Source of the DNA: a virus
Reading direction: 5' to 3' (one strand)
IMG/VR virus record: IMGVR_UViG_3300029506_000018
Location: 1 to 37,963 of that record
DNA length: 37,963 nucleotides
Part shown: positions 900 through 37,963 of the stretch, one piece after another
Layout: the number at the start of each line of letters is the position of its first letter
How positions within the stretch are numbered: position 1 is the stretch's first letter
Translations under genes and position numbers: made by a program
The notes under the pieces: model-generated
What the model was told of the DNA's origin: nothing
The model's database searches: none
What the model saw: only the letters and a program-made list of their open reading frames with translations

Positions 900-1346
900 T
901 TACTCCATTTCTGCCATTGTTTTAATTACCTGATTATTCTCGATCGGCATGGCATCCCATTGATTCAGTTTTACATATTCTTCGATCACTTTGAGCGCGA
1001 TCTCCTGACTGTAGCAGACTGCAACGAAGTTTCCATATTCTGCTGCCTGTTTTAAAAAATCTTTCTGTTCCTTTTGTAGTCTCCCATCTCCGTATTTCAT
1101 TTCGATGTATAAACTTGCGTACTGTCCTTTTGGCACTGGAAGGTGCAGATCTGGTACGCCTGCCTTTACTCCCTGCCGTTTCAAGACTGCTGCACTTACG
1201 CGATCACGTTTTCCGCCATTTGGGCAGTGATGCAATAGTTTCAGCTCAGGATATCTATTCTCCATAAACTTACAAATTGTAATCACTGCTTCTTGTTCAC
1301 TTGCTTCTGTTCTTAGCATGTACTGTTGTCTTCTCGCTCTACTCAT
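900..1346 (-). CDS. VRR-NUC domain nuclease (PD-(D/E)xK fold)
   Basis: GVPDLHL ... LYIEMKYG motif pair typical of VRR-NUC. GGAGGG RBS upstream. Confidence 0.75.
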   Translation of the reverse strand: MSRARRQQYMLRTEASEQEAVITICKFMENRYPELKLLHHCPNGGKRDRVSAAVLKRQGVKAGVPDLHLPVPKGQYASLYIEMKYGDGRLQKEQKDFLKQAAEYGNFVAVCYSQEIALKVIEEYVKLNQWDAMPIENNQVIKTMAEME

Positions 1347-1349
1347 TCT

Positions 1350-1577
1350 TTACCCTCCATCATCTATGTGCCAGGATCTGCATCCGTTTTGAACTAGAAT
1401 GTACTCCATATACGGATATCCTGTTGCTGTGTATCCTTTACGTACACCGCCGTTCTCTTCATCGTGTCTTTTGTCGATATAGTAACCTTTTTGGCTCTTT
1501 GCGTCCGTTCGAAAGAAATCTCTTTCCCATATCAGTTCTTTCTTTATGATCGGCTGTTTCAGATTACGCGATGGGGG
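1350..1577 (-). pseudogene. Out-of-frame 3' continuation of the Rep-like gene (about 70 codons with no start codon of its own)
   Basis: The frame +1 relative to 1564..2112 reads ...PSRNLKQPIIKKELIWERDFFRTDAKSQKGYYIDKRHDEENGGVRKGYTATGYPYMEYILVQNGCRSWHIDDGG*. It ends at the RBS of the next gene. The two frames meet at a G5/C5 homopolymer at 1573-1577. Confidence 0.45.
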
Positions 1578-2112
1578 AGTATGTCTTACCTCCGTACTTC
1601 TCCATCTTCTTTCTTCCTTTTTCTTTCACGAGATAGGCGGCTAACTTTCCGTATTGGCCAGTACCATCAAGTAGCCGAATATCTATTCTCCCACGATCCC
1701 AACATCTTTTGATTGCTTTTGGCTCTATGCTTTCCAGTACCATGTGGATATGCCTTGCACCTTTGCTTCCTGTTTCAAGTACGTATATGTATTTCAATTC
1801 TCTTCCTTGCTTCTTGTACTCTTTTCTTAGATCTGCGATCAGCTTGTTCTTCTGCTTTACCAGGTCTTCATATGTGTCTGGTCGTTCCTCTTTCTTGTAG
1901 GAAAACGTTACGAACATATCTCCTTCCTGGAAGTTACAGTTCAGCTTCCATCTAAGCTGTTCTGTCTGCTTTCTTATATTCACATTCTCCTGTGTCTCTC
2001 TTGTTGGTTCTTCTCTTTTAATTCTCTTTTCTTTCGGCTTATGTCTTCTGCTGTAGTACTTTTTTACCTCTTTGCACTTACCTGCGTATACTGTTCTTAT
2101 CCAATATGGCAT
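1564..2112 (-). CDS. Small HUH-type Rep-like protein (rolling-circle initiator motif layout), apparently truncated by a frameshift
   Basis: Ordered motifs FVTFSY (motif I-like), HIHMVL (HUH) and AAYLVKEK (YxxK-like). The ORF stops just after a C5 run. Confidence 0.6.
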   Translation of the reverse strand: MPYWIRTVYAGKCKEVKKYYSRRHKPKEKRIKREEPTRETQENVNIRKQTEQLRWKLNCNFQEGDMFVTFSYKKEERPDTYEDLVKQKNKLIADLRKEYKKQGRELKYIYVLETGSKGARHIHMVLESIEPKAIKRCWDRGRIDIRLLDGTGQYGKLAAYLVKEKGRKKMEKYGGKTYSPIA

Positions 2113-3912: not shown

Positions 3913-4062
3913 TTATGCTGCATTCGTCGGATTCTTCTCGTCCATCTTCTGCCTTGCGATCAGGATGTCAATGCTTGCCTTTACAAGCATCATTGATTCT
4001 TTATCCAGTTTCTTTAAGTTTTCGACAGTTTCTTTCATTAATTCTTTTCCTTTGTCTGTCAT
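3913..4062 (-). CDS. First gene of the early (lytic) operon, 49 aa, function unknown
   Basis: The internal start MTDKGKELMKE... follows a GAAGGTGAG RBS. The longer ORF-track start at 4122 has no RBS and would make the left arm of the inverted repeat coding. Confidence 0.5.
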   Translation of the reverse strand: MTDKGKELMKETVENLKKLDKESMMLVKASIDILIARQKMDEKNPTNAA

Positions 4063-4086: not shown

Positions 4087-4239
4087 CCGCAGATGAATTA
4101 ACACTCCGCCCGATTCATTCACATATAGATAAATAATTACAATGGGGAGGCTCCGCGTTGTTGCGGAGTTGAGATTTCTTTTTTAGGATGCATTCGGGTA
4201 ATTGCATCCTGATCAGGCGGAGTGTTAGTTCATCTGCTG
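4087..4239. repeat. IR-C: 24-bp inverted repeat (22/24 match) at 4087-4110 and 4216-4239 around a 105-bp segment, in the leader of the early operon
   Basis: Left arm is ccgcagatgaattaacactccgcc. The reverse complement of the right arm is cagcagatgaactaacactccgcc. Confidence 0.9.
4151..4184 (+). terminator. Terminator-like hairpin plus T-tract inside IR-C; works only on the plus strand in the current orientation
   Basis: Stem ctccgc-gttgtt-gcggag, extendable by 2 G-U pairs, is followed by ttgagatttctttttt. On the minus strand the matching hairpins are followed by A-runs. Confidence 0.4.
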
Positions 4240-4360: not shown

Positions 4361-4387
4361 ATACTTATCAGATTGGAGGTGAAATTT

Positions 4388-4777
4388 ATGAATACGCGTT
4401 TGCACCATTTAAGAAAAACATTAAAATTAAGTCAGGAAGATTTTGGAAAACGACTTGGCGTTACTGGTGCATCAATTAGTAGGCTAGAAAAAGGTGAACG
4501 TAACATCACAGAACAAATGATTTTGTCAATATGTCGTGAATTTAACGTTAATGAAAAATGGCTTCGACATAATGAAGGTGAAATGTTTCTTCCTTTTGAA
4601 GATGAAGTTGCAGAAATGGTCTCACAACTATTAGAGGTATCAAATCCTTTTTATGATTTGATCTTGGATATGATGGTATCTTTTAACGAGTTGGACGATA
4701 AAGGCAAGCAAGCTATTTGTGATTACACTGCTTTGCTTGCAGAAAGAATGGCAAAAAGAAAAAAGGAAGACGATTAA
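4388..4777 (+). CDS. cI-like XRE-family repressor (HTH only, no S24 peptidase domain)
   Basis: MNTRLHHLRKTLKLSQEDFGKRLGVTGASISRLEKGERNIT is an HTH_3 signature. The gene is divergent from the early operon. GGAGGT RBS present. Confidence 0.8.
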   Translation: MNTRLHHLRKTLKLSQEDFGKRLGVTGASISRLEKGERNITEQMILSICREFNVNEKWLRHNEGEMFLPFEDEVAEMVSQLLEVSNPFYDLILDMMVSFNELDDKGKQAICDYTALLAERMAKRKKEDD

Positions 4778-6475: not shown

Positions 6476-6662
6476 ACAAATAAAAATACCGCCTAGCTGG
6501 TAACTAGACGGCATTTAAAGAAAACCACTTGCACCTGTTAAGTTAACAGATGAGTACTTTTCCCTCGCAAGTTTAAGTATATCATTTTTTCTTGACACTT
6601 CGCAAGAGGTGTATTTTTTGTACCAAATTTTAATATTTTGTAAAAAGGAAAAGGTGATTACT

Positions 6663-8123
6663 ATGAAAAAGATCGCAGCTGCTTATATAAGAGTCAGTAC
6701 GCACATGCAAGAAGAATTATCTCCAGATGCACAGCTCCGTTTTATTAGGACCTGGGCAGATGCTCATGGTTATTATGTGCCTGACGAATTTGTTTTTATA
6801 GATAGCGGAATTTCTGGAAGGAAAGCAAAGAAACGTCATGACTTTTTACGAATGATCGGGCTCGCCAAAATGAAGCCTTCCCCTTTTGAATCAATCCTTC
6901 TTTGGAAATTTAATCGTTTTGCACGAAACCAAGAGGAAAGCATTTTTTATAAGTCCATGCTTCGTAAAAAATGCAAGGTTGATGTTATCAGCACCACTCA
7001 GCAGACAACGAAAGACATCTACGGAGATCTGATTGAACGTATCATTGAATGGACTGACGAATTCTTTTCTATCCAGTTAGGGGAAGATGTCAAACGAGGA
7101 ATGACTGAAAACGCCCTTCGTGGAAATTTCCAAGCTTCTCCGGCTTTTGGATACAAGGTAGAAAAAGGGCTAGGACTAGTCATTGTTGACGGTCAGGCAA
7201 ATATCGTTCGAATGATTTTTAATTTATATGCCAATACTAGGATGGGATTTTACGAAATCGCTCGCCACTTGAATCGCTTAGGCTATAAAACCAAGAAAGG
7301 TGGAGCTTTTGAGGCTCGCGCAATTAGGTACATTATTCAGAATCCAATCTATAAAGGATACCTTCGATGGAACTATGCAAATGGTACTACACATGCTGTC
7401 AATGATGAAAGCGAATGGATCATCGTAAAATCTCCACTAGTTCCTGTCATCGTGCCTGAAGAACTTTGGGATCGAGCGAACGAGCGTTTAAAAAATGAGT
7501 ATCATCCTAAAAACGGAAAGCCAGTATCAAAGCATCGCCACTGGTTGTCCGGGCTTGTCAAATGCTCTTCCTGCGGTGCGTCTCTTTCTACATCTGTGCA
7601 ATATCGTCGCGATCGCACCTACATTAATTTTCAATGCTATAAGTACCTTAAGGGAAAATGTATGATTTCTCATGGAATTTCTGAAAAGAAGCTTGTTCCG
7701 TTGATTTTAAATGTCTTAAAAGAAGATATGAACAAATCCTACATAGAATGCGAACGTATAGAAAAGGTTGTTGAAAATCAACAGGATATCCTGGATGTTC
7801 AGTTGAAACGTTTGGATGCCAGAGAAGTTCGGATCAAAGAGGCATATTTGAATGGCGTTGATTCTTTGTCAGAATACAAAAGCAATAAAGAACAAATTCA
7901 ACAAGAAAGAGAACTTCTTCTCAAGCAATCACAGAATCATGGCAAAGAGGAAAAAGGATCAAATGAACTTCCTAATAAGATTCGTGGTGTTTATGACATA
8001 CTGGTATCTGATCAATGCAGCAAAGATGAAAAACAAGCTGCAATTCGTTCGATCGTGAAAAAAATTGTATTCGATAAAGAAAACAAAACCTTAGATTTCT
8101 ATTATTACATAAAAGAAGATTAA
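6663..8123 (+). CDS. Large serine recombinase (integrase type)
   Basis: MKKIAAAYIRVSTHMQ carries the catalytic Ser motif. Recombinase domain, zinc ribbon CSSCG...FQCYKYLKGKC and C-terminal coiled coil follow. The start at 6663 follows an AAAGGTGA RBS. Confidence 0.9.
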   Translation: MKKIAAAYIRVSTHMQEELSPDAQLRFIRTWADAHGYYVPDEFVFIDSGISGRKAKKRHDFLRMIGLAKMKPSPFESILLWKFNRFARNQEESIFYKSMLRKKCKVDVISTTQQTTKDIYGDLIERIIEWTDEFFSIQLGEDVKRGMTENALRGNFQASPAFGYKVEKGLGLVIVDGQANIVRMIFNLYANTRMGFYEIARHLNRLGYKTKKGGAFEARAIRYIIQNPIYKGYLRWNYANGTTHAVNDESEWIIVKSPLVPVIVPEELWDRANERLKNEYHPKNGKPVSKHRHWLSGLVKCSSCGASLSTSVQYRRDRTYINFQCYKYLKGKCMISHGISEKKLVPLILNVLKEDMNKSYIECERIEKVVENQQDILDVQLKRLDAREVRIKEAYLNGVDSLSEYKSNKEQIQQERELLLKQSQNHGKEEKGSNELPNKIRGVYDILVSDQCSKDEKQAAIRSIVKKIVFDKENKTLDFYYYIKED

Positions 8124-31280: not shown

Positions 31281-31298
31281 TGTATCACTTCCTTCTAC

Positions 31299-31372
31299 TG
31301 GACCTCCAGGGTCTCGAACCCTGGACCGATCGGTTATGAGCCGACTGCTCTGACCAACTGAGCTAGAGGTCC
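31299..31372 (-). tRNA. tRNA with CAU anticodon (elongator Met, or lysidine-modified Ile2 reading AUA)
   Basis: A 74-nt cloverleaf folded by hand: acceptor GGACCTC/GAGGTCC, D stem GCTC/GAGC, anticodon stem GTCGG/CCGAT, loop CTCATAA, T arm CAGGG-TTCGAGA-CCCTG. No encoded CCA. It lacks the initiator features (1:72 mismatch, GGG/CCC anticodon stem). Confidence 0.9.
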
Positions 31373-31510
31373 ATATAATAATAAAAAGGAAACAAGATCT
31401 GCTGCCGTATGGCTTACATTCTCGTTCCCTTTTTTATTCATGCTACTATAATATCACTTTAAATTGTATGTGAGTCCCTCTCTTTCCTTTATTTTCTTTA
31501 ATTTACATTT

Positions 31511-32758: not shown

Positions 32759-33139
32759 CTATAATTTGTTCAGTGGACATCTATCGCATATATCTTTACA
32801 TTCCTGATTAAGATTCGGAATCATTTTGGTATATATACAATATTCATCACATATCTCCTGCTTTACTTCTTCTATGATGTCAGTTACCGTTTTGCTTTTC
32901 TCGCTATCTTCTTTTGCAGCTCCTGTAATTTCGGCAATAGTTCTTTGATGTTCCTTTACAACATCTTCTCCTACTCTGGTTTTATAACCAATCATCATAT
33001 CGTAAAATCTGTTGAGCTTTTTATCGTTCATTCCGTCAAACTCGCAATCAAACGCGAAATCGTCGAGTTCGCATTCATCACAGCCATCTTGCATATTGCA
33101 AAAGTCACGTAGTTCGTATATCTTTTCTTCTCTTGTCAT
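32759..33139 (-). CDS. Cys-rich hypothetical protein
   Basis: 126 aa. AGGAGGG RBS. Confidence 0.65.
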   Translation of the reverse strand: MTREEKIYELRDFCNMQDGCDECELDDFAFDCEFDGMNDKKLNRFYDMMIGYKTRVGEDVVKEHQRTIAEITGAAKEDSEKSKTVTDIIEEVKQEICDEYCIYTKMIPNLNQECKDICDRCPLNKL

Positions 33140-33168: not shown

Positions 33169-33321
33169 CATCCAGCTGATCTCTGTCCGCATATGTGATC
33201 ATCTTTTTACGCCCTGTCGCTTAAGATCATCCCGAAACCCACAACTACCACAACTATTACTGCGACTTTTTTAACAACAATCTTAGGTTGTTGGTTACTA
33301 CGGACAGAGATCAGCCGGATG
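33169..33321. repeat. IR-A: 21-bp inverted repeat (20/21 match) at 33169-33189 and 33301-33321 around 111 bp of non-coding DNA
   Basis: Left arm is catccagctgatctctgtccg. The reverse complement of the right arm is catccggctgatctctgtccg. Confidence 0.9.
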
Positions 33322-34454: not shown

Positions 34455-34862
34455 CTATTCGTACCTTCCTGCTCCTGCTCCGTATCGGTGCCACGTTGCT
34501 CCTGTTTTAACTTTCTTTCTTCTTTTGTTTATCATTTTTTCATGATCGGCGATTATTATATAGCGATACTTGTTATCCCAGTACTCTAGCATTTGTGGAC
34601 TGATTCCTGTTTTCTTTGCCATTGTTTTGTATGTTATTCCGTCAAATAGCATTTGAGTTACAATTCTTTTTTTGTATTCTTCACTGTATTTTTTGCGATT
34701 GTTGCCGTCTACTTTTTCTATCTCTTCATCTTTATACTGTTTTACCCACTTCCTCAATGTTAGCAATGTTATTTTTGTTTTAGCTGCAAATTCTCTCCTC
34801 GTCATTCCTGACGCTAGTAACATTCTTACGATTCCTCTTTTAAATTCTTCTGTATACTGCAT
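34455..34862 (-). CDS. DNA-binding protein with two IS3-OrfA-like (transposase_8-type) HTH repeats
   Basis: YTEEFKRGIVRMLLASGMTRREFAAKTKITLLTLRKWVKQY, repeated as YSEEYKKRIVTQMLFDGITYKTMAKKTGISPQMLEYW. Confidence 0.7.
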   Translation of the reverse strand: MQYTEEFKRGIVRMLLASGMTRREFAAKTKITLLTLRKWVKQYKDEEIEKVDGNNRKKYSEEYKKRIVTQMLFDGITYKTMAKKTGISPQMLEYWDNKYRYIIIADHEKMINKRRKKVKTGATWHRYGAGAGRYE

Positions 34863-34873
34863 AGTTTTGTTCT

Positions 34874-35096
34874 CAGACAGCTTAGTTCTTTACCTGATGC
34901 AGTGTATTTAACCGTGATCACTGATTCTTTCTTTTTGTCTAATCATGTTAAATCCCTGTGATTCTTCGTTTGTTGTTTGTGATTTGTAAAAAATAATAAT
35001 GATTGTGTTATAAATAAACAGAAACTTGATAATGTATAATAAAACTTTGTTAATAGTTGCTAAAAGAATCTCTCAGGTAAAGAACTAAGCTGTCTG
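34874..35096. repeat. IR-B: perfect 24-bp inverted repeat at 34874-34897 and 35073-35096 around 175 bp of AT-rich non-coding DNA
   Basis: cagacagcttagttctttacctga versus tcaggtaaagaactaagctgtctg are exact reverse complements. TTCT lies immediately outside both arms. Confidence 0.95.
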
Positions 35097-35235
35097 TTCT
35101 CCTTTCTGCCTGCTGCCTTTTCTGGCAGTAGGCTAATAGATCTCATGGCTTATACATGACTTCTTTGTTTCTTATGCGTTTTGTTAATAGTTACTGTGGT
35201 ATATTGCAACTGGTCACTGCCAGTAGTGCATCATT

Positions 35236-35685
35236 TCATTGTGTCCGAATCGGACACCTGTTTTTAGCCTTTTCTTTTGCTATAAATCTTTTTAGTGGCT
35301 GTCCGTTCATTTTTCTTCTGTTATTTCCTTCATTATGGATATTCCTAAATATTTTTCTTGCTTCTTTTTTTGTATCACTTATCGTTATTTCCCATTCATG
35401 CACTTTTAGTTCTATCGTCCCATATACAATCTTGCTGCCTTTTGCTGCTTCTTCCTGCATTTGAACATTTTTAATGTTCGTTAATTTTGCGACTTTTTCT
35501 CCGTCGGCAAACATTATTGCTTCTTCTGGTACTTCTATTTTTTTATTTGTGTGCCTTTCTCCTTCTTCTGACTTTTCTTTTATGCAGCTCTCACATTCTG
35601 GATGTACGTTAATCGTTTCATCTTTCCTTAGTCCTGCCGTTATTTTTCTAAATGCTTCTCTGATCTTCTTTATCCCTTCGATCAT
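35236..35685 (-). CDS. Hypothetical protein
   Basis: The start MIEGIKKIREAF overlaps the SSB stop (ATGA). The last codons contain palindrome copy 2. Confidence 0.6.
   Translation of the reverse strand: MIEGIKKIREAFRKITAGLRKDETINVHPECESCIKEKSEEGERHTNKKIEVPEEAIMFADGEKVAKLTNIKNVQMQEEAAKGSKIVYGTIELKVHEWEITISDTKKEARKIFRNIHNEGNNRRKMNGQPLKRFIAKEKAKNRCPIRTQ
35241..35257. repeat. 17-bp perfect palindrome GTGTCCGAATCGGACAC, copy 2
   Basis: Read directly. The 19-mer 35240-35258 is identical to 24361-24379. Confidence 0.9.
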
Positions 35686-36002
35686 TGTTCTTTCCTTTCT
35701 GCAAACTCCATACTTTCTGCCACGATCTCCGTCGTGTACACTTTTGTTCCGTCTGTTTTTATATAGCTCCCTGTTTGGATTCTTCCTTCCAGTGCGATCT
35801 TGATTCCTTGATCCAGCCATTTGTCTGCAAATTCTGCGCCTTTACCAAACGCAACGCATCCGATAAAATCTGCATCCTGCTGCCCTTCTCGCTTAAATCT
35901 GCGATCTACCGCTAGTGTAAACCTTGCTATACACAGATCTTCTTCATTCCAACTTATCTCAGGCTTCCTGGTTAATCTGCCCATTAGCATTACTTTGTTC
36001 AT
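35682..36002 (-). CDS. ssb: Single-stranded DNA-binding protein (short, no acidic tail)
   Basis: MNKVMLMGRLTRKPE...FTLAV...FIGCVAFGKGAEF...IALEGRIQTGSY OB-fold pattern. Confidence 0.85.
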   Translation of the reverse strand: MNKVMLMGRLTRKPEISWNEEDLCIARFTLAVDRRFKREGQQDADFIGCVAFGKGAEFADKWLDQGIKIALEGRIQTGSYIKTDGTKVYTTEIVAESMEFAERKEQ

Positions 36003-37477
36003 ATATCCTCCACTTCTGAGAGTCCCAGGATGCAGTATCCTTCTTCCAAGCCCTTAAAGCCTTCCAGGATATAGATCACTTGTTTCTCTGTTACTCTTCC
36101 TGTTTCTTCTCCATCACTCATCTCGTGCAGTTCCAGGACGTCTCCGATCTGATAGTTCCTATCATTTTTTCGCAGTTCGAATGACTTCTTTCCTGTGTCC
36201 ACTGCATCGAAGAACATCTTTGCAAGCTTTAGGCGGTGTCTTCGCTCGTCTGATTCGCTTCCTGGTACTTCTACCTTATTCGTCTGTGGAATCTCTACGC
36301 ATTCCGTCTTTTGTTCTTCTGCTGCCTTAGTATCGAATTGGATCATATCGCTGATCGCGTCTGCCATTTTAATAACTGTCTTTTTAACAATTTCTTCAAA
36401 ATTATCTTTGCATAGTTTTATATAGCCTTTTCCGCAGTCATACCATCCGTCAAACCCATTAGATCCTCGTAACGTTCCGCCAGCTCCTTTATATCGTTCT
36501 CCCATGTATTTTTTTAATTCCAATGAATTCTTTATATCTTGTCTATTAATGTCTCTTTGAATTCTCTCTGCAAACGCTTCTAATGCCTGTTTTTCTAATT
36601 CATCCTGATCCGGACAGCATTCCGGATAGTCTCTTTCCGCTTCCACCTGTCCTTCAATCTCTGCTTCTTCCTCTTCTTCTGTCTCATCCGCTTCGGCTTC
36701 CTGTCTTGATTCCTTTAGCTCTGCTTCCTGTTGTTCTTCCAGGATGCGTTGCTTGTATTCTCTTATCTTTTTTACAGTTATGATCTTATCTGGATACCAG
36801 CTATATATTTCTTCCTGTTCATCTTCTTCCATTCCTGCGATCTCCACTGCTGTCGAAAAGCTGATTTCCTGTTTTTCTAATAGCTTTCTCAGTTCCGGAA
36901 TCAAATTGTTGTTGATGCTCATTGCATTGGCGATCTGTGTTGGCTTCTTCCCGAGGATTTTTGCCGCTATGTCTCGCAGTCTTCCAGATTCCAGATCATA
37001 GCCCATGATCTTCTCTCCTGCTGCCTTTGCATCCTTTAGCGCGTCCGTTAACAATTTGATTCGCTCTAATTCTTTCTCTGGTGTCGCTTTTCGGTAGCTA
37101 TTGGAGATACATAGCTCAATGATCTCTTCATTTTTGCTTCGTGGCTTTCTGATCTGGCATGTAGCTTCTCTAAATTCCTGGAGATCTTCTTCCTCTACCA
37201 GTTTCTTTAGTGCTCTCCATCTTCGTTCGCCTCCGATCAGCTTGTATTCTTCTCCTTTTTCATTCGGTTCGTACATAACTTCTAGTGGCTGTAGCAATCC
37301 AAGTAGTTTGATCTCTGCTGCCTTTTCGTCGATGCCGTTCTGATCGCTTATGTTGTCTTCGTTTGCGTAAATGTTATAAACATCTATATCTTTTGTTCGG
37401 AATCGTGCTTTCGGCTTCTCTTCGATTCCTTCCTTACTCGTTTTATTTAGCATGTCCATGACGTTAAATCCTGCCAT
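35999..37477 (-). CDS. parB: ParB/Srx-domain protein fused to a C-terminal ASCH/DUF3850-like domain
   Basis: The N-terminus LLQPLEV...KLIGGERRWRALKKL is the ParB box (GERRxRA). The C-terminus HRLKLAKMFFDAVDTGKKSFELRKNDRNYQIGDVLELHEM is DUF3850/ASCH-like. Confidence 0.8.
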   Translation of the reverse strand: MAGFNVMDMLNKTSKEGIEEKPKARFRTKDIDVYNIYANEDNISDQNGIDEKAAEIKLLGLLQPLEVMYEPNEKGEEYKLIGGERRWRALKKLVEEEDLQEFREATCQIRKPRSKNEEIIELCISNSYRKATPEKELERIKLLTDALKDAKAAGEKIMGYDLESGRLRDIAAKILGKKPTQIANAMSINNNLIPELRKLLEKQEISFSTAVEIAGMEEDEQEEIYSWYPDKIITVKKIREYKQRILEEQQEAELKESRQEAEADETEEEEEAEIEGQVEAERDYPECCPDQDELEKQALEAFAERIQRDINRQDIKNSLELKKYMGERYKGAGGTLRGSNGFDGWYDCGKGYIKLCKDNFEEIVKKTVIKMADAISDMIQFDTKAAEEQKTECVEIPQTNKVEVPGSESDERRHRLKLAKMFFDAVDTGKKSFELRKNDRNYQIGDVLELHEMSDGEETGRVTEKQVIYILEGFKGLEEGYCILGLSEVEDI

Positions 37478-37494: not shown

Positions 37495-37963
37495 CTAGTC
37501 TACTTTCTGGAATCTACCAGTTTTCTTATTTCTTCGTTTTGATTCTATGTACTTTTGAGCTTCATTCCACTCTTCTTCTGTCATGATCTCTTTTAGTACG
37601 TTGTTGTAATCCTTTGCCGCATTACTGCTCTTTGACATTTCTGAGAGTGGTCTAAATGCTGTTTCTGCCTTTTCTGCTACTACAGATCTTCTTATCTCTG
37701 TCTGGAACATCTTGTCCTTGTATGTGTCTCTTAGCCATTTGGCTGTGTCTTTGTTCGTCTGGTTTCCGGTCTTCATGGTCATTAGTATCCTGATTTGCTG
37801 CCCTTCATGAATTCCTTTCGCCTGTTCAATCATATTTTCAATTGCTTCGATTCCATAACCACCTGCTTTCACAGGAATTATCAACAATTCTGACGCTTTA
37901 ACCACATTTAGTACTGTTACATCTAGTAATAATCCACAATCGCATATTACGTAATCGTATTTA
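37495..37963 (-). CDS. parA: ParA C-terminal part (same gene as 1..452; 37865..37963 duplicates 1..99)
   Basis: The frame is open to the window end. ...VKASELLIIPVKAGGYGIEAIENMIEQ... continues the N-terminal part. Confidence 0.85.
   Translation of the reverse strand, partial: KYDYVICDCGLLLDVTVLNVVKASELLIIPVKAGGYGIEAIENMIEQAKGIHEGQQIRILMTMKTGNQTNKDTAKWLRDTYKDKMFQTEIRRSVVAEKAETAFRPLSEMSKSSNAAKDYNNVLKEIMTEEEWNEAQKYIESKRRNKKTGRFQKVD

Follow-up and report, generated by a model that had tools for sequence, protein, structure and literature searches.

In bacteriophage T4, a hairpin in the mRNA shortens the distance between the Shine-Dalgarno sequence and the AUG from 22 to 5 nucleotides (nt) at gene 38 and from 27 to 11 nt at gene 25 (PMC3014915). 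Inverted repeats bound the flgB switch of Clostridioides difficile, a 154-bp segment with 21-bp repeats that is flipped by RecV and was spotted because one of four genomes carried it inverted (PMC5386303). The PeSL cassettes of T4-type phages are short intergenic stem-loop cassettes that carry a promoter and a terminator, occur in many copies per genome, and act as points of recombination (PMC2839356). Here we describe a cassette bounded by inverted repeats in a stretch of viral DNA (IMG/VR virus record IMGVR_UViG_3300029506_000018, positions 1 to 37,963), which we refer to at its full length of 37,963 nt as the window. The cassette (positions 34874 to 35096) is placed before the ATG (34860 to 34862) of a gene encoding a helix-turn-helix (HTH) protein. 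Drawing on sequence comparison, we propose, with slightly less than even confidence, that its inverted repeat is the closing helix (P1) of an mRNA leader domain of ~225 to 250 nt that splits a ribosome-binding site.

The two arms of the repeat, 34874 to 34897 (CAGACAGCTTAGTTCTTTACCTGA) and 35073 to 35096, are each 24 nt long, 100% complementary, and separated by 175 nt. Such a repeat is far beyond chance. A third copy of the 24-mer is absent from the window even with up to three mismatches allowed, and 100 shuffles yielded 0 matches. An earlier interpretation made from the letters alone (the sequence-only reading) had described these perfect arms around an AT-rich core, and both parts of that description are confirmed: the GC content is 26.3% in the core and 20% in its central 80 nt, compared to 37.8% in the window. 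It had also pointed to a TATAAT hexamer on the plus strand (35035 to 35040) and to TTAGCA-16-TATTAT on the minus strand (35063 to 35036), and both are present. Promoter-like matches in the region nevertheless do not rise above the level of shuffled sequence in a promoter and terminator scan (10 found versus 10.1 expected). The intergenic gap, 34863 to 35235, measures the 373 nt given earlier, assuming that the upstream open reading frame (ORF) ends at 35236, and the cassette, with its terminal inverted repeats, has no coding capacity. TTCT does stand on each side of the arms in the window (34870 to 34873 and 35097 to 35100), as had been reported; as a conserved duplication it does not hold up, being confined to the subgroup of the window, whereas relatives read GGAGAA before the cassette and AAACG, AAACA, or AAAAA after it. 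The neighborhood is also as described: reading on from the right end of the window, the gene order is ParA, a ParB-DUF3850 fusion, SSB, an ORF of 149 amino acids (aa), and the cassette, which is followed by the gene for the 135-aa HTH protein, small ORFs, tRNA-Met, and the terminase genes. The HTH protein carries the IS3-OrfA-like repeats attributed to it (two HTH_Tnp_1 matches); compared to solved structures, it gives only a weak match to the IS3/IS911-type protein 2jn6. Because the early genes, the cassette, and the HTH gene are all transcribed leftward, the gene-sense strand is the minus strand of the window. In gene-sense order, the parts of the element are as follows, with helices as predicted.

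35167 to 35224, minus strand: conserved upstream leader, comprising hairpin B, AUAUACCAC, box 1, and CGCAUAAGAAAC
35209 to 35224, minus strand: hairpin B, replaced in L007-type phages by a homologue of cassette 2 of the window
35181 to 35195, minus strand: box 1, AGUAACUAUUAAC, part of the conserved leader
35167 to 35178, minus strand: conserved block CGCAUAAGAAAC, part of the conserved leader
35108 to 35133, minus strand: hairpin P0, GCCUACUGCC-AGAAAA-GGCAGCAGGC, directly 5′ of the Shine-Dalgarno sequence
35099 to 35107, minus strand: Shine-Dalgarno sequence AGAAAGGAG (9 nt), 2 nt (AA) 5′ of P1
35073 to 35096, minus strand: 5′ strand of P1, in RNA CAGACAGCUUAGUUCUUUACCUGA, covarying with 34874 to 34897
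35064 to 35070, minus strand: 5′ strand of P2, GAUUCUU, pairing with 34960 to 34966
35047 to 35061, minus strand: box 2, AGCAACTATTAACAA, just inside P1 and P2
34967 to 35046, no strand assigned: hypervariable AT-rich loop, 20% GC, holding TATAAT and TATTAT
34960 to 34966, minus strand: 3′ strand of P2, AAGAAUC, pairing with 35064 to 35070
34898 to 34959, minus strand: P3-P4 hairpin, built of two outer stems and the inner stem UGAUYR/YRUGAUCA, its loop of ~20 nt rich in purines
34874 to 34897, minus strand: 3′ strand of P1, ending 11 nt before the HTH start codon
34863 to 34873, minus strand: A-rich spacer AGAACAAAACU of 11 nt between P1 and the start codon, without a Shine-Dalgarno sequence
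34860 to 34862, minus strand: AUG of the HTH gene
34455 to 34862, minus strand: HTH gene, encoding 135 aa that include a pair of HTH_Tnp_1 repeats of the IS3-OrfA-like kind and the conserved tail WHRYGAGAGRYE

The cassette was compared across 189 complete locus records, which represent ~170 contigs (some fetched repeatedly) and 76 distinct sequences; because related sequences share phylogeny, counts of alignment cells given below overstate the number of independent events. HTH homologues with 33 to 99% identity were collected from IMG/VR, from Logan and ENA assemblies, and from the genome of one Anaerostipes sp., Marseille-Q3525 (Lachnospiraceae). Across this whole range of identity, the cassette sits immediately upstream, in one orientation, in every homologue with an inspected upstream region. 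The exact arm is present in 21 IMG/VR contigs, all 21 of which have both arms, and a degenerate arm pattern matched 80 stretches in human-gut metagenomes. Carriers are human-gut phage and prophage contigs, including the Anaerostipes prophage found via the HTH protein, and throughout the ~170 carrier contigs there is one locus and one copy per contig. Conservation is higher in the arms and stems than in the genes on either side. Between its conserved flanks, the AT-rich loop ranges from ~80 to 140 nt among relatives and occurs in at least three unrelated versions plus mosaics such as locus L197. No match to the 1.3 kb around the cassette was found among INPHARED reference phages (distant mode). 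A 16-nt degenerate pattern, too short to gauge copy number per host genome, gave at least 120 chance matches in genome contigs, with no full arm among the matches listed.

Two of these loci merit separate description. L197 is a mosaic cassette whose 5′ part and arms resemble L165 and whose central and 3′ core is of the L301 type; this indicates recombination inside the conserved module between phage lineages. In L014 (2391 to 5118), the full module of P0, Shine-Dalgarno sequence, P1, P2, P3, and P4 precedes a methyltransferase-like ORF of 213 aa, after which come a 358-aa and a 332-aa tyrosine recombinase.

The position of the cassette relative to translation signals is conserved. A Shine-Dalgarno sequence precedes 34 of the 44 ORFs in the window; the HTH ATG has none within 22 nt. 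On the far side of the cassette, AGAAAGGAG matches the anti-Shine-Dalgarno sequence, and no ATG, GTG, or TTG follows it within the arm. In each locus tested for it, the shorter core AAAGGAG (one mismatch allowed) is found immediately 5′ of the arm, and the distance from the Shine-Dalgarno sequence to P1 is 1 to 6 nt across records. On the other side, P1 and the ATG are 8 to 13 nt apart, and the distance is 10 to 11 nt in 178 of 192 locus records, with a spacer of variable sequence. In the window, the Shine-Dalgarno sequence and the AUG are 234 nt apart along the linear sequence and 13 nt apart across the base of the folded P1; in the predicted fold, the bridged spacing is 10 to 16 nt among relatives, excepting the L014 type.

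The leader also occurs without the cassette. In 33 loci, box 1, P0, and the full 9-mer Shine-Dalgarno sequence (one mismatch allowed) are followed by an ATG within 9 nt, and in one of these, L303, the leader is identical to that of the window. These are L007-type phages, in which the ATG opens a separate 73-aa single-HTH gene; in the loci printed among the 33, it comes 5 nt after GGAG. Because an ATG follows directly in these loci, P0 and the Shine-Dalgarno sequence constitute a genuine translation initiation region. L007-type phages have the cassette further down, with a second Shine-Dalgarno sequence on one side of it and the ATG of an 82-aa HTH gene on the other. The order of Shine-Dalgarno sequence, cassette, and ATG thus recurs in two distinct upstream contexts. 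A conserved small ORF spanning P0, the Shine-Dalgarno sequence, and the arm was also considered and rejected: it encodes 28 aa in the window and is frame-shifted or lacks a start in relatives.

Changes in the arms are coordinated. Across 20 representatives, 8 of the 24 pairs of P1 show changes on both sides (e.g., A-U to G-C and U-A to C-G). The inner 14 bp of the arms vary jointly, with coordinated changes in further lineages at positions 11, 12, 13, 15, 17, 20, and 22; the outer 10 bp are invariant in all 76 distinct sequences. Paired with each other, the arms have a duplex energy of −41 kcal/mol, and in the predicted centroid fold (z = −7.0), P1 is formed and both the Shine-Dalgarno sequence and the AUG are unpaired. 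Inside P1, both halves of P2 are missing together in L252 and L254, and P3-P4 adopts a common fold in 16 diverse sequences. RNAalifold on a MAFFT alignment recovered P4 alone, with register shifts, and a covariance model, R1, was used instead for P3-P4. This model matches once per locus, on the gene-sense strand wherever orientation was independently set. In the R1 alignment, 89% of P3-P4 cells are paired (27 to 51% in slid controls), and 49 cells show changes on both sides, compared to 19.8 in shuffles, none of 500 of which reached 49; because the alignment was fitted to the model, these numbers favor the structure, and because window-type rows remain slightly misregistered in it, the mismatch count is inflated. 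Hairpin P0 is kept with altered stems and loops in L014, L251, L252, and L254.

The pairs themselves suggest which strand folds. The two inner pairs of P4 are distributed as CG:23/UG:10 and AU:20/GC:8/GU:4, with A-C never seen; these G-U pairs would break the helix on the opposite strand. Among the non-Watson-Crick cells of P1 in the 20 representatives, 15 are G-U on the sense strand and 7 are A-C. The fold is thus likely to form on the sense strand, and the folding molecule would be RNA or, with lower probability, single-stranded DNA. Rfam 15 has no family for this RNA motif, which is undescribed: across the whole window, tRNA-Met is the sole match at the gathering score, and positions 34800 to 35300 give two chance-level matches (E = 2.5 to 3). 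The group I intron reading was set aside: the U that such an intron requires is missing from the 5′ junction, and Rfam gave no match.

We tentatively read these observations (the repeat and its conservation, the covariation in P1, P3, and P4, the joint loss of P2, the fixed orientation, the geometry, and the uninterrupted leader with its Shine-Dalgarno sequence elsewhere) as those of a split ribosome-binding site. As in the T4 type of split site, the in silico picture comprises a remote Shine-Dalgarno sequence, an AUG without one of its own, and a covarying P1 that restores the distance. Since the Shine-Dalgarno sequence and the AUG come to lie 13 nt apart once P1 forms, split-site translation is proposed: we infer that this Shine-Dalgarno sequence serves the HTH AUG, and any regulatory input is likewise a matter of inference. 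Early transcripts reading through from upstream of the 5′ arm would carry P0, the Shine-Dalgarno sequence, and the whole module. P1 would then fold, closing P2, the AT-rich loop, and P3-P4 inside it, and would bring the Shine-Dalgarno sequence and the AUG together in a bridged ribosome-binding site. Folding of the enclosed domain would decide whether the site is assembled, and hence whether the HTH protein is translated, and the site would be usable solely by transcripts that begin upstream of the 5′ arm. More speculatively, the enclosed conserved hairpin and the boxes may take regulatory input.

Several points weigh against this proposal. The bridged spacing of 10 to 16 nt, to which the width of the helix end must be added, exceeds the optimum, and the invariance of the outer 10 bp is unexplained by pairing alone. 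In L014-type loci, the next ATG is 22 nt from P1 and starts another gene. RNase III would be expected to act on a perfect 24-bp duplex of RNA, and a cut would part the Shine-Dalgarno sequence from the AUG. TTAACA or TTAGCA of box 2 could be the −35 element of a sense-strand promoter, and by our own scoring a promoter-like site recurs at the box 2 position in only 12 of 20 representatives, which is a weak indication; if such a site inside the core is used, mRNA starting there cannot form P1. The sense-strand bias of P1 is modest and suggestive (15 versus 7 cells, or ~13 versus 9 independent events), the strand of P0 is ambiguous, with an A-C on the sense strand of the window, and a cruder count of G-U pairs on both strands (union of folds) was uninformative owing to alternative reverse-strand helices and was replaced by helix-specific pair counts. 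Coordinated changes in an inverted repeat can also arise at the DNA level by template switching or gene conversion. Finally, we know of no split ribosome-binding site with an insert of ~225 nt.

The window as a whole is a temperate siphovirus-type genome that is apparently circularly permuted. Beyond the genes already named, it carries the following.

4373 to 4777, plus strand: CI-like repressor, a lysogeny gene
6609 to 8123, plus strand: large serine integrase, a lysogeny gene
1564 to 2112, minus strand: Rep-like gene, an early gene
900 to 1346, minus strand: VRR-NUC gene, an early gene

Among readings that differ from a split ribosome-binding site, one retains the RNA and changes its function. 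P1 would be an RNase III processing stalk at which early polycistronic RNA is cut, separating the replication genes from the HTH gene, and P0 with the orphan Shine-Dalgarno sequence would be a 5′ stabilizer of the STAB-SD type in place of a signal for translation. We consider this unlikely, although it draws on the same RNA-structure evidence: a perfect duplex of 24 bp at −41 kcal/mol is long enough for RNase III, a Shine-Dalgarno sequence without a start codon and with a GC-rich hairpin before it resembles Firmicute 5′ stabilizers, all three inverted-repeat cassettes of the window lie in intergenic leaders in the same direction of transcription, and L014 keeps the module even though bridging to an ATG is impossible there. 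However, a cut in P1 would give an HTH mRNA with a 5′ monophosphate and with neither a Shine-Dalgarno sequence nor a protective structure, and it would strand the STAB-SD on the wrong side of the cut. Cleavage also leaves unexplained why the HTH ATG lacks a Shine-Dalgarno sequence in every lineage and why the spacing stays at 10 to 11 nt, and P0 and the Shine-Dalgarno sequence act as a translation initiation region in 33 loci. Another reading moves the function to the DNA, where the double-HTH protein or another phage protein would bind the invariant outer arms (CAGACAGCTT), and perhaps the AGYAACTATTAAC boxes, and act by looping or occlusion in self-control. OrfA-type proteins bind the inverted repeats at the ends of their own elements, and the HTH_Tnp_1 match and the weak 2jn6 match (IS3/IS911 type) fit such a role, as do the strict tie of the cassette to the HTH gene family, the invariance of the outer 10 bp amid variable remainders, and the occurrence of the box exactly twice in the window (0.23 expected). 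We nonetheless regard it as quite unlikely. Binding sites need no mutual complementarity, yet the inner arms covary between phages whose HTH proteins are 97 to 99% identical; arm spacing varies from 160 to 205 bp without helical phasing; and in L014 the module adjoins the methylase-like ORF, not an HTH gene (other parts of that contig were not checked for one). Neither the P3-P4 covariation, the joint loss of P2, and the G-U asymmetry nor the geometry of the Shine-Dalgarno sequence and ATG would be explained.

The sequence-only reading had itself offered three explanations: an invertible promoter, an insertion resembling a miniature inverted-repeat transposable element (MITE), and a replication origin. 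It was right that the cassette is a real, discrete module bounded by inverted repeats; none of the three fits well. The case calls for caution: in a Clostridial phage, perfect arms on either side of an AT-rich, promoter-like core give the look of an inverton, yet here the repeat behaves as a conserved RNA helix. As a phase-variable switch in a 5′ untranslated region (UTR) of the C. difficile flgB/cwpV type, inverted by a recombinase of the host or of the phage, it would have the dimensions of Clostridial switches (154 bp, 21-bp repeats, 5′ UTR; PMC5386303) and maintained arm-to-arm identity, and 19 of ~99 metagenome contigs break within or beside the element. One contig end, L229 (ERZ791829 NODE-2622, last 54 nt), runs from the upstream flank through an arm into 30 nt taken from the other end of the core, the junction expected after inversion; its coverage is 2.3x, and it may stem from an inversion that happens rarely, from a chimera made by template switching, or from the assembly. 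The promoter claim found little support: none of the 189 complete copies (76 distinct sequences) is inverted, and scans for inverted junctions gave 0 matches on the HTH side in metagenomes and on the Shine-Dalgarno side in viral contigs. The arms, read from their sequence, lack the internal dyad symmetry typical of recombinase core sites, the proposed promoters are at chance level and patchily conserved, and flipping would destroy the sense-strand covarying hairpins. The sole recombinase among ~20 scanned window ORFs, covering both the lysogeny and the early ends, is the large serine integrase at 6609 to 8123; a host-encoded invertase could still act on the arms. Overall, we judge inversion very unlikely. 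A non-autonomous insertion of the MITE type, whose ends would be the 24-bp repeats and whose target duplication would be the 4-bp flank, that landed between a Shine-Dalgarno sequence and an ATG and was tolerated there is highly improbable in our estimation, even though part of that earlier claim stands. The placement is insertion-like, in that the cassette interrupts a bona fide translation initiation region whose uninterrupted form precedes a paralogous HTH gene in 33 loci; AGAA/TTCT stands at both arms, and removal of the cassette with one copy restores AAAGGAGAACAAAACTATG, a normal ribosome-binding site. The neighboring gene is transposase-like, and a second, possibly related cassette occupies differing positions in different phages. 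Against this, the element has one copy and one insertion site in ~170 contigs, with no other arm match in the window. No orthologous empty site was found among relatives, and the pattern AAAGGAGAACAAAAYTATGCARTA had 0 matches in viral contigs. The duplication is missing in most lineages, a DDE transposase is absent, and arms and stems covary, as those of a decaying MITE would not. We give almost no weight to a replication origin or single-strand origin, in which the core would be an AT-rich unwinding region flanked by inverted repeats near ssb and parAB. The core is AT-rich, lies downstream of the ParA, ParB, and SSB genes, and, if folded as a single strand, would show similar covariation and G-T pairs. 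However, the element contains no iterons and no direct or tandem repeats, skew does not change at this position, and the AT-rich portion is hypervariable and the least conserved part, so this suggestion too was not sustained. The Rep-like gene at 1564 to 2112 does not adjoin the element, which is kept in phages with DnaD-type replication modules and follows the HTH gene and the geometry of the Shine-Dalgarno sequence and ATG instead of any given replication module.

Two further candidates were set aside. A retron was rejected because the scanned ORFs around the cassette include no reverse transcriptase, a gene at which no search was aimed; a pac or cos site was rejected because packaging modules differ between carriers.

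The window carries two more inverted-repeat cassettes, at 4089 to 4237 and 33169 to 33321. Cassette 2 (33169 to 33321, minus strand; 1843 to 1996 in L007) has 21-nt arms and a 111-nt core and is conserved in 85 locus records. Its arms also covary, TCTCTGTCCG changing to TCACTGCCTG on both sides, and across the variants inspected, in an untallied comparison, one arm position stays U-G on the sense strand (oriented by the downstream flank) while other positions covary, in keeping with a fold on that strand. The gene that follows cassette 2 in the window is at 32759 to 33139; in L007-type phages, its homologue in turn takes the place of hairpin B, directly upstream of the leader formed by box 1, P0, and the Shine-Dalgarno sequence. 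At its start, the core of cassette 2 has TAGTAACCAACAAC, a sequence similar to the AGTAACTATTAAC box; at its end it has GATGATCAC, as does the cassette at 34874 to 35096. Cassette 1 (4089 to 4237) lies in the intergenic region between CI and the early genes and has 26-nt arms that are 92% complementary and 97 nt apart. On the minus strand, it forms the leader of the first early gene, with an ATG near 4061 and the Shine-Dalgarno sequence AAGAAGGTGA. Its core holds two hairpins, and GCTCCGC-GTTGTT-GCGGAG followed by TTGAGATTTCTTTTTT looks like a plus-strand terminator.

Other features of the region were recorded in passing. The ParB_N-DUF3850/ASCH fusion is 492 aa long (35999 to 37477), and the ParA-like gene (37495 to 37905) is cut by the end of the window; partition-type genes thus coexist with a large serine integrase in one phage. 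A tRNA-Met gene (CAT anticodon; 31298 to 31373, minus strand) lies between small early and middle ORFs and the terminase genes. On the plus strand, between 35196 and 35268, the invariant sense-strand block AUAUACCACAG reads TGTGGTATATT, an extended −10-like motif, and GTGTCCGAATCGGACAC followed by CTGTTTTTAG (35241 to 35268) is the sole terminator-like site of the region, ~40 to 60 nt downstream of TGTGGTATATT. A small RNA of ~55 nt could be made from the unit between TGTGGTATATT and the terminator, and it would be antisense to the upstream 149-aa ORF at the 3′ end of that ORF.

Returning to the split ribosome-binding site, a broader version of the proposal seems to us possible but doubtful. 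The domain of ~225 to 250 nt inside the ribosome-binding site may be a bacterial counterpart of the ribosomal shunt, with P3-P4 and the boxes as a sensor (dependent on a protein, a ligand, or RNase III) that times the regulator at the early-to-late boundary, and cassette 2, and perhaps cassette 1, may be further such modules in gut Lachnospiraceae phages. If the split-site proposal is true, bacterial initiation tolerates an insert ~10 times the size of those in the T4 precedents. Genome annotation would then have to treat start sites, and Shine-Dalgarno sequences that seem "missing," differently. Human-gut Lachnospiraceae phages, which are abundant, would also be the source of a structured RNA not described before, placed where replication genes meet later genes, a location that bears on the setting of lytic timing.

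Compared to known systems, the cassette resembles T4 genes 38 and 25 (Nivinskas/Malys) in that the Shine-Dalgarno sequence is too distant along the linear sequence, RNA structure bridges the gap, and the arrangement is conserved in a phage group. It differs in that T4 uses small hairpins, whereas here an insert of 223 to 253 nt comprises a 24-bp helix, extra stems, and a hypervariable loop, and in that the T4 cases have mutational and probing evidence where ours are sequence comparison and predicted folds. The STAB-SD of Bacillus thuringiensis cry3A is likewise a strong Shine-Dalgarno-like sequence in a Firmicute 5′ UTR with no start codon directly after it (PMC4113751). Unlike the present sequence, it occupies the 5′ end that processing leaves on the transcript, with ~125 nt between it and the start codon, and does not direct initiation (PMC4113751), whereas the cassette leader initiates directly in 33 related loci and the distance from helix to AUG is tightly kept. 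The flgB switch of C. difficile shares size, repeat length, position in a 5′ leader, and a Clostridia-class host; both of its orientations are readily seen, in contrast to 0 of 189 here, where the helix covaries and no recombinase is linked. PeSL cassettes, like this one, are conserved cassettes shared by diverged phages, and mosaic cores occur here as well (L197), but the present cassettes have one copy per type, no terminator, and a putative promoter. RNase III stalks, as in rRNA operons and T7 early RNA, are long duplexes in polycistronic transcripts and are similar in placing a long-range or perfect duplex where gene blocks meet; T7 sites are local irregular hairpins, whereas here the stalk surrounds a structured domain and lies within a ribosome-binding site. 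In the cauliflower mosaic virus 35S shunt, a large leader stem is bypassed and initiation occurs just past its base, in a eukaryotic, scanning-dependent process; a point of likeness is that an ORF in L007-type phages ends 15 nt ahead of P1. In fold-back inhibition of IS10, only read-through transcripts hold the 5′ arm, as would also be the case for the cassette. There the fold hides the ribosome-binding site; here, we propose, it assembles one.

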